A DNA stretch of 64,000 nucleotides from Escherichia coli. GTDB lineage: Bacteria > Pseudomonadota > Gammaproteobacteria > Enterobacterales > Enterobacteriaceae. The stretch is from NCBI RefSeq assembly GCF_016026235.1, contig NZ_CP065613.1; one strand, written 5' to 3'. Positions 12,647-48,866 of this stretch are shown here, in pieces (the first letter of the stretch is position 1; every line of letters begins with the position of its first letter). The notes beneath the pieces were generated by a model. It had not been told where the DNA came from, did not search any database, and was given only the letters and a program-made list of their open reading frames with translations. The translations under genes and the position numbers were made by a program.

Positions 12647-14806
12647 ATGCTTTTTAGCTTTTTTCGAAATTTGTGCCGTGTTTTGTATCGCGTTCGCGTT
12701 ACGGGTGACACCCAGGCACTGAAGGGCGAGCGCGTTCTAATTACGCCTAATCACGTCTCTTTTATTGATGGCATTTTGCTTGGACTGTTTTTACCTGTGC
12801 GTCCAGTGTTTGCCGTTTACACCTCAATAAGCCAACGGTGGTATATGCGTTGGCTGAAATCATTTATCGACTTTGTTCCTCTCGACCCGACGCAACCTAT
12901 GGCTATTAAACATCTGGTACGTCTGGTGGAACAGGGCCGACCAGTGGTGATTTTCCCTGAAGGACGCATCACCACTACAGGCTCGCTGATGAAAATCTAC
13001 GATGGCGCGGGTTTTGTCGCGGCGAAGTCTGGTGCAACGGTTATTCCTGTGCGTATTGAAGGGGCGGAACTTACGCACTTCAGCCGCCTGAAAGGTCTGG
13101 TTAAACGTCGCTTGTTCCCGCAAATTACTCTGCATATTTTGCCTCCAACGCAGGTGGCGATGCCGGATGCGCCGCGTGCCCGTGACCGTCGCAAAATCGC
13201 TGGCGAAATGCTGCATCAAATAATGATGGAAGCGCGTATGGCGGTGCGCCCGCGTGAAACGCTGTACGAATCTTTACTGAGTGCAATGTACCGCTTCGGA
13301 GCCGGGAAGAAATGTGTCGAAGACGTCAACTTTACCCCAGACTCCTATCGCAAATTGCTTACTAAAACGCTGTTTGTTGGACGCATCCTTGAAAAATACA
13401 GTGTTGAAGGCGAACGCATCGGCTTAATGCTGCCCAATGCAGGCATCAGTGCGGCAGTGATTTTTGGGGCCATCGCCCGTCGCCGCATTCCCGCAATGAT
13501 GAACTACACCGCTGGGGTAAAAGGGCTGACCAGCGCCATTACGGCGGCTGAAATCAAAACCATCTTCACTTCCCGCCAGTTTCTCGATAAAGGCAAACTC
13601 TGGCATCTGCCGGAGCAACTTACTCAGGTGCGCTGGGTCTATCTGGAAGATTTAAAAGCAGATGTCACCACTGCCGACAAAGTGTGGATCTTCGCTCATT
13701 TGCTGATGCCGCGTCTGGCACAGGTAAAACAGCAGCCGGAAGAAGAGGCGCTGATCCTTTTTACCTCCGGTTCTGAAGGCCATCCGAAAGGCGTCGTCCA
13801 TAGCCATAAAAGCATTCTGGCGAATGTCGAGCAGATTAAAACGATTGCCGACTTCACCACCAACGATCGCTTTATGTCGGCGTTGCCGCTGTTTCACTCC
13901 TTTGGGCTGACGGTAGGCCTGTTTACGCCACTGCTCACAGGTGCAGAAGTGTTCCTTTATCCAAGCCCGCTGCATTACCGCATTGTGCCGGAGTTGGTAT
14001 ATGACCGCAGTTGCACCGTGTTGTTCGGTACCTCCACTTTCCTCGGTCACTACGCGCGTTTCGCCAACCCGTATGACTTCTATCGTCTACGCTATGTGGT
14101 GGCAGGCGCAGAAAAACTACAAGAAAGTACCAAACAGCTTTGGCAGGATAAATTTGGCCTGCGCATCCTTGAAGGCTATGGTGTAACCGAGTGCGCGCCT
14201 GTCGTTTCTATCAACGTACCGATGGCGGCGAAACCCGGTACGGTAGGGCGTATTCTACCAGGAATGGATGCGCGCCTGTTGTCGGTTCCTGGTATCGAAG
14301 AGGGCGGACGCCTGCAACTGAAAGGGCCGAACATAATGAACGGCTATCTGCGGGTGGAGAAGCCAGGTGTACTGGAAGTGCCCACCGCCGAGAATGTTCG
14401 CGGCGAAATGGAACGTGGCTGGTATGACACTGGCGATATCGTGCGTTTTGACGAGCAGGGCTTTGTGCAGATTCAGGGCCGCGCAAAACGCTTTGCCAAA
14501 ATTGCAGGCGAAATGGTATCGCTGGAAATGGTGGAACAACTGGCACTTGGTGTTTCGCCAGATAAAGTCCATGCCACTGCGATTAAGAGCGATGCCAGCA
14601 AAGGCGAGGCACTGGTGCTTTTCACCACAGATAACGAACTGACGCGCGATAAGTTGCAACAGTATGCCCGCGAGCACGGCGTGCCGGAGCTTGCTGTACC
14701 GCGTGATATTCGCTATCTGAAACAGATGCCATTACTTGGCAGCGGCAAACCTGACTTTGTCACGTTGAAAAGCTGGGTAGACGAAGTGGAACAACACGAT
14801 GAGTGA
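12647..14806 (+). CDS. aas: Bifunctional 2-acylglycerophosphoethanolamine acyltransferase / acyl-ACP synthetase
   Basis: 719-aa ORF: N-terminal acyltransferase motif (HVSFIDG) and C-terminal AMP-binding domain ([11 protein letters not shown]). Confidence 0.95.
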
Positions 14807-15992
14807 GTCAGTGCACACTAACACTTCGTTGTGGTCGAAGGGGATGAAAGCGGTTATCGTGGCGCAGTTTCTCTCTGCTTTTGGCGATAATGCGCTACTG
14901 TTTGCCACTCTGGCGTTACTGAAAGCGCAGTTCTATCCGGAGTGGAGCCAGCCCATCCTGCAAATGGTGTTTGTAGGTGCTTACATTCTTTTTGCGCCGT
15001 TTGTCGGGCAGGTGGCGGATAGCTTCGCCAAAGGCCGGGTGATGATGTTTGCCAACGGCCTGAAGCTGCTGGGCGCAGCCAGTATCTGCTTTGGTATCAA
15101 TCCGTTTCTCGGCTATACGCTGGTGGGTGTTGGTGCTGCAGCCTATTCACCGGCGAAATACGGTATTCTCGGCGAATTAACCACGGGTAGTAAGTTAGTA
15201 AAAGCTAACGGTTTAATGGAAGCTTCTACCATAGCGGCGATTTTACTCGGTTCCGTAGCCGGTGGTGTGCTGGCTGACTGGCATGTCCTGGTCGCCCTGG
15301 CCGCATGCGCACTGGCCTACGGTGGTGCGGTCGTTGCCAATATCTACATTCCCAAACTGGCGGCGGCGCGTCCGGGGCAGTCCTGGAATCTCATCAACAT
15401 GACCCGCAGTTTTCTGAATGCCTGCACCTCGCTATGGTGCAATGGTGAAACGCGTTTTTCGCTGGTGGGCACCAGTTTATTCTGGGGAGCGGGTGTCACG
15501 CTGCGTTTCCTGTTGGTGCTGTGGGTACCGGTGGCGCTGGGCATTACCGATAACGCTACGCCGACCTATCTCAACGCGATGGTAGCGATTGGTATCGTGG
15601 TTGGCGCAGGTGCGGCAGCGAAGCTGGTTACGCTGGAAACCGTGTCACGCTGTATGCCAGCCGGGATTTTGATTGGCGTGGTGGTACTGATTTTCTCCCT
15701 GCAACACGAGCTGTTGCCAGCCTATGCCTTATTGATGCTGATTGGCGTGCTGGGGGGCTTTTTTGTAGTACCGCTCAATGCGTTGCTACAGGAGCGGGGT
15801 AAAAAAAGCGTCGGGGCGGGGAATGCGATTGCAGTACAAAACCTTGGCGAAAACAGCGCCATGTTGTTGATGCTGGGCATTTACTCGCTGGCGGTAATGG
15901 TAGGCATCCCAGTCGTGCCCATTGGCATTGGCTTCGGTGCGCTATTTGCGCTGGCAATAACGGCGCTGTGGATCTGGCAGCGCCGTCATTAA
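14799..15992 (+). CDS. lplT: Lysophospholipid transporter (MFS)
   Basis: 397-aa polytopic membrane ORF overlapping the aas stop by 8 bp. Confidence 0.95.
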
Positions 15993-15997
15993 TATTT

Positions 15998-16019
15998 AAC
16001 GCCGGTTTGAACCGGCGTT
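15998..16019. terminator. Hairpin between convergent lplT and tas, possibly bidirectional
   Basis: Perfect inverted repeat AACGCCGGTTTGAACCGGCGTT between the two stop codons. Confidence 0.5.
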
Positions 16020-16023
16020 AATC

Positions 16024-47200: not shown

Positions 47201-47406
47201 AAAAAAAAGCACCGCAATTAGGCGGTGCTACATTAATCACTATGGACAGACAGGGTAAATGTACAGGAAGTGAAAAAAGGTAGCTTTGCTACCATGGTCT
47301 GAATCGCAGACCAATTGCAAACACAACAACACAACATCACAACCGTAAGCCAAAAGTTCACCAGAACACGCATTCCGATAAAACTTTTCGTTCCGGCTCA
47401 GGAAGT
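47201..47406 (-). ncRNA. gcvB: GcvB small RNA
   Basis: Minus-strand sequence begins ACTTCCTGAGCCGGAACGAAAAG..., contains the G/U-rich stretch GTTGTGATGTTGTGTTGTTGTGTTTG and ends in the hairpin AGCACCGCCTAATTGCGGTGCT plus a T-run; divergent from gcvA. Confidence 0.85.
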
Positions 47407-47534
47407 GCCGCCACTATAGGTATTTGCTGGTAGAAGCTCAACGGACAATTTATAATGGCTCAGATTAAAAAAACTAATAGGTTACACAGTGTAATCTAAT
47501 TGTTAAATTCATTTAACATCAAAGTTTAAAAGCC

Positions 47535-48452
47535 ATGTCTAAACGATTACCACCGCTAAATGCCTTACGAGTTTTTGATGCCGCAGCACGCCATTTAAGT
47601 TTCACTCGCGCAGCAGAAGAGCTTTTTGTGACCCAGGCCGCAGTAAGTCATCAAATCAAGTCTCTTGAGGATTTTTTTGGGCTAAAACTGTTCCGCCGCC
47701 GTAATCGTTCACTCCTGCTGACCGAGGAAGGGCAAAGCTATTTCCTCGATATCAAAGAGATATTTTCGCAATTAACCGAAGCGACGCGTAAACTCCAGGC
47801 CCGTAGCGCCAAGGGGGCGTTGACGGTCAGTTTACTCCCCAGTTTCGCCATTCATTGGTTGGTTCCGCGACTTTCCAGCTTTAATTCAGCTTATCCGGGA
47901 ATTGACGTTCGAATCCAGGCGGTTGATCGTCAGGAAGATAAGCTGGCGGATGATGTTGATGTGGCGATATTTTATGGTCGGGGCAACTGGCCGGGGCTAC
48001 GGGTGGAAAAACTGTACGCCGAATATTTATTGCCGGTGTGTTCGCCGCTACTGCTGACAGGCGAAAAACCCTTGAAGACCCCGGAAGATCTGGCTAAACA
48101 TACGTTATTACATGATGCGTCACGCCGTGACTGGCAGACATATACCCGACAGTTGGGGTTAAATCATATCAACGTTCAGCAAGGGCCAATTTTTAGTCAT
48201 AGCGCCATGGTGCTGCAAGCGGCTATTCACGGGCAGGGAGTGGCGCTGGCAAATAACGTGATGGCGCAATCTGAAATCGAGGCCGGACGTCTTGTTTGCC
48301 CGTTTAATGATGTTCTGGTCAGTAAAAACGCTTTTTATCTGGTTTGTCATGACAGCCAGGCAGAACTGGGTAAAATAGCCGCCTTTCGCCAATGGATCCT
48401 GGCGAAAGCCGCTGCTGAACAAGAAAAATTCCGCTTTCGTTATGAACAATAA
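47535..48452 (+). CDS. gcvA: Glycine cleavage system transcriptional activator (LysR family)
   Basis: 305-aa ORF with N-terminal HTH (LNALRVFDAAARHLSFTRAAEELFVTQAAVSHQIK). Confidence 0.95.
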   Translation: MSKRLPPLNALRVFDAAARHLSFTRAAEELFVTQAAVSHQIKSLEDFFGLKLFRRRNRSLLLTEEGQSYFLDIKEIFSQLTEATRKLQARSAKGALTVSLLPSFAIHWLVPRLSSFNSAYPGIDVRIQAVDRQEDKLADDVDVAIFYGRGNWPGLRVEKLYAEYLLPVCSPLLLTGEKPLKTPEDLAKHTLLHDASRRDWQTYTRQLGLNHINVQQGPIFSHSAMVLQAAIHGQGVALANNVMAQSEIEAGRLVCPFNDVLVSKNAFYLVCHDSQAELGKIAAFRQWILAKAAAEQEKFRFRYEQ

Positions 48453-48470
48453 TTTACGTAGGGTACGACC

Positions 48471-48866
48471 ATGACCAGCCGTTTTATGCTGATTTTCGCC
48501 GCCATTAGCGGCTTCATTTTTGTGGCTCTGGGCGCTTTTGGCGCGCATGTGTTAAGTAAAACCATGGGGGCCGTTGAGATGGGCTGGATCCAGACCGGCC
48601 TCGAATACCAGGCGTTTCATACGCTGGCGATCTTAGGTCTGGCGGTGGCAATGCAGCGTCGCATCAGTATCTGGTTTTACTGGAGTAGCGTTTTCCTCGC
48701 GTTAGGCACGGTGTTGTTCAGCGGCAGCCTTTATTGCCTGGCGCTGTCCCATCTGCGTTTGTGGGCGTTTGTCACTCCGGTTGGCGGCGTGAGCTTCCTC
48801 GCGGGCTGGGCGTTAATGTTAGTTGGTGCTATCCGTTTAAAGCGCAAGGGCGTAAGTCATGAATAA
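48471..48866 (+). CDS. ygdD: DUF423 inner membrane protein YgdD
   Basis: 131-aa hydrophobic ORF; overlaps the rlmM start by 8 bp. Confidence 0.85.

Follow-up and report, generated by a model that had tools for sequence, protein, structure and literature searches.

Short stop/start overlaps between neighbouring genes in the aas-rlmM region of Escherichia coli: ordinary operon junctions with probable translational coupling

Do the short overlaps between neighbouring genes in the aas-rlmM region of the Escherichia coli chromosome reflect translational coupling, and is there anything unusual in how many of them occur there? An original prediction, made from DNA sequence alone, had listed eight such overlaps, called them ordinary for compact operons, taken them to suggest translational coupling and used them to support its choice of start sites. 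We followed up these claims in the same window, a 64,000-nucleotide stretch of E. coli RefSeq assembly GCF_016026235.1 (contig NZ_CP065613.1), in which the overlaps are spread over 34 kb. The eight overlaps are real, ordinary, and already known and tabulated for E. coli K-12. We put at about 70% the probability that they are ordinary operon-internal stop/start overlaps accompanied by termination-reinitiation coupling, as judged from the behaviour of other E. coli gene pairs. The operons involved are aas-lplT, ppdA-ppdB-ygdB-ppdC(-recC), ptrA-recB-recD, csdA-csdE and (gcvA-)ygdD-rlmM.

Gene coordinates were transferred onto the window from the annotation of the closest RefSeq genome, NZ_CP065615.1 (strain FDAARGOS_943), and all 14 genes are free of internal stops when translated. 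All eight junctions join neighbours on the same strand, and in each the start of the downstream gene lies upstream of, or shares bases with, the stop of the upstream gene. On the plus strand, aas (12647-14806) and lplT (14799-15992) overlap by 8 bp at 14799-14806, where the sequence reads ATGAGTGA. Three overlaps follow one another on the plus strand in the ppd cluster: ppdA (25924-26394) and ppdB (26385-26948) share 10 bp at 26385-26394 (ATGCCTGTGA), ppdB and ygdB (26945-27352) share 4 bp at 26945-26948 (GTGA), and ygdB and ppdC (27337-27660) share 16 bp at 27337-27352. Also on the plus strand, ptrA (31217-34105) overlaps recB (34098-37640) by 8 bp at 34098-34105, again ATGAGTGA, and recB shares the single base 37640 with recD (37640-39466) in the motif TAATG at 37638-37642. 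The same motif is found on the minus strand where csdA (45560-46765) and csdE (45117-45560) share base 45560. The last overlap, 8 bp at 48859-48866 on the plus strand (ATGAATAA), joins ygdD (48471-48866) to rlmM (48859-49959). Read directly from the sequence, all five lengths in the original prediction were correct, as were its outer limits (14799 is the lplT start and 48866 the ygdD stop); the ppd overlaps, for which it had omitted lengths, are all present.

Conservation in related genomes had been named as a check on the overlaps, and when it was run they were found to be kept at all eight junctions. A RecB-centred scan with one genome per species gave 80 Enterobacteriaceae loci with 10-kb flanks. 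Each E. coli protein was located in these by tblastn; of the in-frame start codons, the one closest to the aligned N-terminus was taken as the start, and the first in-frame stop codon as the end of the gene. In 62/76 to 77/77 loci this start coincided exactly with the aligned position. The ppdA/ppdB junction is overlapped in 76/76 species, at distances of -10 (48 species), -7 (22), -4 (3), -34 (2) and -1 (1), where negative values denote overlap. For ppdB/ygdB, 75/76 species overlap, all by -4, and one has +7; for ygdB/ppdC all 76 overlap, 71 of them by -16 and five by other lengths. The ptrA/recB overlap occurs in 78/79 species (-4 in 45, -8 in 30 and -20 in three, with one species at +413), and recB and recD overlap in 77/77 (-4 in 69; -1 in eight, which are Escherichia and a few Citrobacter). 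At csdA/csdE, 36 of 41 species overlap (-1 in 27, -4 in nine), the others having distances of 0 (4) or +17 (1). Each overlapped junction shows only two to five distinct distances; the uncoupled recC-ptrA spacer, which serves as an internal control, has 31 distinct lengths ranging from 15 to 186 nt.

The two outermost junctions were compared in smaller sets. The list of LplT homologues consisted mostly of Salmonella, so that conservation of aas/lplT refers to three further genera, all of which have the 8-bp geometry (ATGNGTGA): Salmonella enterica, Citrobacter rodentium and an Enterobacter strain. The ygdD/rlmM arrangement C-ATG-AAT-AA is identical in six of six genera drawn from five Enterobacterales families (Kosakonia, Klebsiella, Pectobacterium, Serratia, Hafnia and Erwinia). 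With such strong conservation across species, none of the overlaps is an accident of this strain. In these alignments the length of an overlap may differ between members of the family, yet the genes go on overlapping, and the comparison shows the overlapped state to be under purifying constraint in the Enterobacteriaceae and, for ygdD/rlmM, in the Enterobacterales. Overlaps that persist through changes of length are in keeping with selection for coupling and not for a particular sequence.

The number of overlaps in the region is not unusual. In K-12, 707/2,987 same-strand pairs (24%) are reported to lie at distances of -8 to +6, and -4, -1 and -8 are given as the three commonest configurations both in E. 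coli and in 1,695 species (Huber et al., 2023, PMC10666635). Between aas and rlmM, seven of the 21 same-strand pairs fall into this class (binomial P = 0.21 against 24%), and across the whole window 8/34 (24%) do so, which is the K-12 baseline. Outside the region, no overlap occurs among the four same-strand pairs on the yqeF-ygeA side of the window, and of the nine pairs on the fuc-sda side one is at +1. On these figures an enrichment of overlaps in the region was rejected; the apparent clustering arises because the outermost overlaps themselves set the limits of the region. The K-12 supplementary table moreover lists distances of -8, -10, -4, -16, +12, 175, -8, -1, -1, +18 and -8 (Huber et al., 2023, PMC10666635). 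All eight overlap distances are among these values, and the observation is therefore already on record. To call the overlaps ordinary for compact operons was thus accurate both in the frequency of the class and in the individual distances.

Under termination-reinitiation coupling, a ribosome that ends translation of the upstream gene would sit 1-16 nt from the next start and could reinitiate there, assisted to a varying degree by sequences resembling a Shine-Dalgarno (SD) motif that the upstream gene carries in its final codons. Six of the eight junctions (-8, -4, -8, -1, -1 and -8) lie in the range of -8 to about +10 nt that is reported to be reinitiation-competent, while ppdA/ppdB (-10) and ygdB/ppdC (-16) lie outside it. 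Coupling would tie together the output of products that work with each other, as in RecB-RecD, CsdA-CsdE and the Ppd minor pilins, and it would make recB, with its weak SD, dependent on translation of ptrA. CsdE matches the PDB chains 4lw4 and 5eep, which their depositors named 'CsdA-binding activator' and which we take to be from CsdA-CsdE complexes. The Ppd minor pilins presumably work together, and RecB-RecD is flagged as a complex in the K-12 table (PMC10666635).

Precedents come from E. coli itself. The pairs menDH, hyfHI, astDB and ydbH/ynbE studied by Huber et al. (PMC6728339, PMC10666635) carry motifs of the same kinds, namely ATGA/GTGA at -4, TAATG at -1 and ATGNNTGA/ATGNNTAA at -8, and in many cases the upstream gene contains the SD. 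Among native E. coli pairs at -4, four of the five tested were reported to be strictly coupled, the exception being bioBF, which initiated de novo (Huber et al., 2019, PMC6728339). Reinitiation is reported to drop off steeply over a distance of about 14-38 nt, and coupling to need no more of the upstream gene than its final 15 nt. A similar layout is known from the operons trp (trpE-trpD, trpB-trpA) and gal (galT-galK), where the upstream coding sequence contains the downstream ribosome-binding site (RBS) and stop and start overlap or abut. That the overlaps suggest translational coupling holds in this sense, as an extension of what has been published for other E. coli pairs.

The strength of the SD, expressed as the energy of its duplex with the anti-SD in kcal/mol, separates the junctions into two groups. 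It is high for recD (-12.1; GGAGGAGG), ppdC (-11.1) and ppdB (-8.5; AAGGAG) and low for rlmM (-5.2), csdE (-4.9), ygdB (-4.1), lplT (-3.3) and recB (-2.5). The differences persist across the family: the median is -9.8 at recD, and no junction has a weaker one than recB, at -3.0. In published tests the requirement for an SD differed from pair to pair (Huber et al., 2019, PMC6728339). Local RNA structure did not stand out: set against their dinucleotide shuffles, the 70-nt segments at the eight junctions had z-scores between -1.35 and +1.49, and none folds with greater stability.

Long overlaps such as the two in the ppd cluster (-7, -10, -13 and so on) belong to a 'phase 2' class that is described as several-fold rarer (PMC10666635). 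Both are associated with a particular protein ending. PpdA terminates in C-x8-C-L-stop (26361-26394) and YgdB in C-x7-C-Q-L-P-stop (27314-27352), and in each case the downstream ATG is the A-TG of xxA-TGY, in which TGY encodes the last Cys of the upstream protein. This Cys is constant in the commonest C-terminal variants of PpdA and YgdB across the Enterobacteriaceae, and the YgdB ending is conserved as L-C-x-x-P-stop. The SDs of ppdB and ppdC are encoded inside the Cys-Cys segments of PpdA and YgdB, respectively. The rare lengths of -10 and -16 are explained by this arrangement, since the downstream start codon is nested in a conserved C-terminal Cys codon.

Several points weigh against coupling at these junctions. 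To our knowledge, PtrA, a periplasmic protease, shares no function or stoichiometry with RecB, nor does YgdD with RlmM, so that coupling of these two pairs would bring no obvious benefit. The strong internal SDs at recD, ppdC and ppdB also permit independent initiation. The conservation counts come from related, non-independent species, and the rule by which starts were assigned is biased towards E. coli-like geometry. Coupling was assayed on the pairs of Huber et al. and demonstrated genetically in trp and gal (Oppenheim & Yanofsky, 1980; Schumperli et al., 1982), whereas here we infer it; the demonstrations all concern other E. coli pairs and none of these eight. One in five of the overlapping pairs tested, bioBF, did without coupling (PMC6728339), and the -8 class is reported to reinitiate less efficiently than -4 or -1. 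Distances of -10 and -16 exceed the range of -8 to +10 that has been treated as predictive (PMC10666635).

These points lead to an account without coupling, in which free 30S subunits would initiate de novo at the SD of each gene and the overlaps would be kept by double coding and cost-free compactness. Such an account fits best at recD, ppdC and ppdB with their strong SDs. It is in keeping with bioBF, where de novo initiation occurred despite a 4-nt overlap, and with the lack of significant junction structure that could block free initiation. The Cys-x-x-Pro-stop of YgdB and the Cys-x-stop of PpdA could moreover explain -16 and -10/-7 by protein constraint alone. It fits poorly with the weak SDs at recB, lplT and ygdB, and with the strict coupling of the other four tested E. 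coli pairs; shifts in length (-1/-4 and -4/-8) with the overlap kept would also be unexpected if only residues were constrained. Taken together, we consider de novo initiation at these junctions less likely than coupling. Coupling might alternatively proceed by RNA unfolding, a mechanism documented for other E. coli operons, in which ribosomes translating the upstream gene would open a sequestered downstream initiation region. In the minimum-energy folds, the ygdB/ppdC SD and the csdA/csdE start region are indeed base-paired, but the stability of none of the eight segments exceeds that of its shuffles, and in published work 15 nt of the upstream gene were enough for coupling. An unfolding mechanism therefore seems improbable here.

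A different objection would be that some overlaps are artefacts of annotation, the true starts lying further downstream and the genes not overlapping at all. In-frame candidates include those at lplT (GTG at +12, with an SD of -5.1 against -3.3 kcal/mol for the ATG), ppdB (GTG at +6) and recD (TTG at +6), and N-terminal peptides cover recB, csdE and rlmM but not lplT, ppdB, ygdB, ppdC or recD. For the three covered genes the annotated starts are confirmed. In the N-terminomics table of TRAINSPOTTER, which covers K-12, N-terminal peptides are recorded at the starts of rlmM (MNKVVLLCR), csdE (MTNPQF.../TNPQF...) and recB, and the sequences flanking these starts are identical in the window and the table. 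Ribosome profiling had been proposed as a further check; in the same published K-12 table, support from retapamulin ribosome profiling (Ribo-RET) is flagged at two of the starts, those of rlmM and recB. The lplT candidate at +12 is TTA in Enterobacter, whereas the ATG is kept in 4/4 genera. The ygdB start is the sole start codon in its open reading frame (ORF) upstream of +42; it reads GTG in 49 species and ATG in 27, and its place is unchanged in 75/76. For recD, the position of the start agrees exactly in 77/77 species. In PpdB and PpdC, the starts are fixed because the N_methyl prepilin motif (Pfam PF07963) must follow a short leader, which the annotated starts provide. The motif lies at residues 1-25 of PpdA, 4-27 of PpdB and 6-30 of PpdC, in all cases above the Pfam cut-off, while the only Pfam match of YgdB is DUF2509. 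An upstream in-frame extension of ppdB to an ATG with a strong SD at 26145 was likewise considered and rejected from the position of the motif and the conserved start.

In lplT, ygdB, recD, csdE and rlmM, an in-frame stop lies 3-33 nt before the annotated start with no other start codon in between, and the chosen starts agree with both the RefSeq annotation and the published K-12 distance table. The start sites of the downstream genes are correct, and misplaced starts are a very improbable source of the overlaps. The use of the overlaps as support for the starts fared differently in its two parts: the starts stand on the independent grounds given above, but an overlap cannot validate a start because it is itself a consequence of the start that was chosen.

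Termination-reinitiation coupling is most plausible at ptrA/recB, given the weak recB SD in every species examined. A study of RecB published in eLife in 2025 noted that the recB RBS lies inside ptrA, which its authors see as suggesting coupling, and reported that deletion of an Hfq site in the 5' untranslated region (5'UTR) of ptrA raises the translational efficiency of RecB. The weak SD in all species, the effect of the Hfq-site deletion and the position of the RBS together fit a recB that is fed by ribosomes leaving ptrA. We suggest tentatively, at somewhat less than even odds, that RecB is held at its very low copy number by Hfq bound to the ptrA 5'UTR, with the ptrA/recB overlap as the conduit: recB, which has a weak SD in 79 species and almost no RBS of its own, would be translated mainly by ribosomes that have just left ptrA. 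The published 36-nt Hfq site was not found in the window at up to two mismatches. By eye, this region of the ptrA 5'UTR, the one deleted in the eLife study, can be placed at 31167-31202, where three positions differ from the printed sequence; these differences could be a strain polymorphism or a misprint.

The single species of the 79 without a ptrA/recB overlap is Intestinirhabdus alba, in which a non-coding spacer of ~413 nt (positions 9588-10000 of the locus) separates the two genes. From its gene arrangement, this species appears to be a natural uncoupled variant. Its own recB SD, AGAGGA, is somewhat stronger (-5.8 kcal/mol against the median of -3.0) but not an outlier. In the RecB literature, ptrA is thought to be an insertion between recC and recB. 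In most bacteria recC, recB and recD are contiguous, and the COG pairs RecC@RecB and RecB@RecD both have a median distance of -4 (318 species for RecB@RecD). The recB/recD overlap is general in this respect, the Enterobacteriaceae mostly sharing the -4 configuration and Escherichia having -1. Unlike these bacteria, however, Enterobacteriaceae carry ptrA between recC and recB, such that the gene of an unrelated periplasmic protease overlaps the recB start and recC is parted from ptrA by a spacer of variable length. In E. coli strain E69, whose contig is a 4.4-Mb chromosome, the RecB match nevertheless ends at residue 666, where the examined locus itself stops; this strain may carry an interrupted recB.

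As to whether the overlapping genes share one transcript, the overlaps leave no space for an intergenic terminator or promoter, and ptrA-recB-recD is called polycistronic in the RecB literature. A consensus promoter and terminator scan of positions 24000-39700 returned 25 terminator-like matches against 16.9±3.9 expected, none of them at a junction, and was uninformative. A hairpin followed by a T-run (GCCGACGCCAGTGTGCGTCGGTTTTTTTT), which the consensus terminator scan had missed, is located at ~25760-25788, just 3' of thyA, and suggests that ppdA opens a separate transcription unit. No CRP-S-type site (TGCGA-N6-TCGCA, at most one mismatch) was found upstream of ppdA. Other junctions of the region abut without overlapping. 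On the plus strand, lgt and thyA are separated by a 6-nt spacer at 24939-24944, which places them within the -8 to +6 class, and this distance recurs in 63/66 species. Between ppdC and recC (27673-31041, plus strand) there is a 12-nt spacer at 27661-27672 that contains the SD CAGGAG, with the same +12 distance in 60/76 species and in the K-12 table. The distance is also +12 at rppH/ptsP, and +18 at gcvA/ygdD.

The gene order of the region is aas, lplT, tas, IS4, ygdR, ygdQ, mutH, ygdT, rppH, ptsP, lgt, thyA, ppdA, ppdB, ygdB, ppdC, recC, ptrA, recB, recD, argA, amiC, three tRNA-Met genes, mltA, tcdA, csdE, csdA, ygdI, gcvA, ygdD and rlmM, which corresponds to K-12 b2806-b2836 in inverted orientation. 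Positions 14000-34000 of the window are matched by 5,425 of 5,426 complete E. coli genomes and are 100% identical to FDAARGOS_943 except for one insertion. The insertion is a complete IS4 of 1,426 bp at 17162-18587, inside the tas-ygdR intergenic spacer and flanked by a 13-bp target-site duplication (CAGCCGGATGCTG; 17149-17161 and 18588-18600). The copy is missing from FDAARGOS_943, and the same site is occupied in strain VR50 and a few others. Interruption of tas by this element was ruled out, as tas (16024-17064, minus strand) is intact. The three tRNA-Met (CAU) genes are arranged in tandem at 42418-42715 on the minus strand, between amiC and mltA; the FDAARGOS_943 annotation has two there, which results in an offset of ~110 bp between the two sequences. 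Elsewhere in the window, ygeA (plus strand, end 8717) and lysR (minus strand, end 8704) overlap tail to tail by 14 bp at 8704-8717, a convergent arrangement irrelevant to coupling. Positions 2861-4535, which in the annotation of the nearest reference correspond to a yqeF pseudogene interrupted by an internal stop, contain no ORF of at least 200 amino acids, and yqeF may be defective in the window as well.

The importance of these results lies mainly in quality control, as the gene models and starts originally proposed for this 34-kb stretch are correct and its overlaps belong to the commonest overlap class in bacteria. The weak SD and conserved overlap of ptrA/recB nevertheless make this junction a concrete place to test how RecB translation stays low. 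If the overlap does act as the conduit for Hfq control, this would explain why a stop/start overlap has been kept in 78 of 79 Enterobacteriaceae species despite the insertion of an unrelated protease gene.

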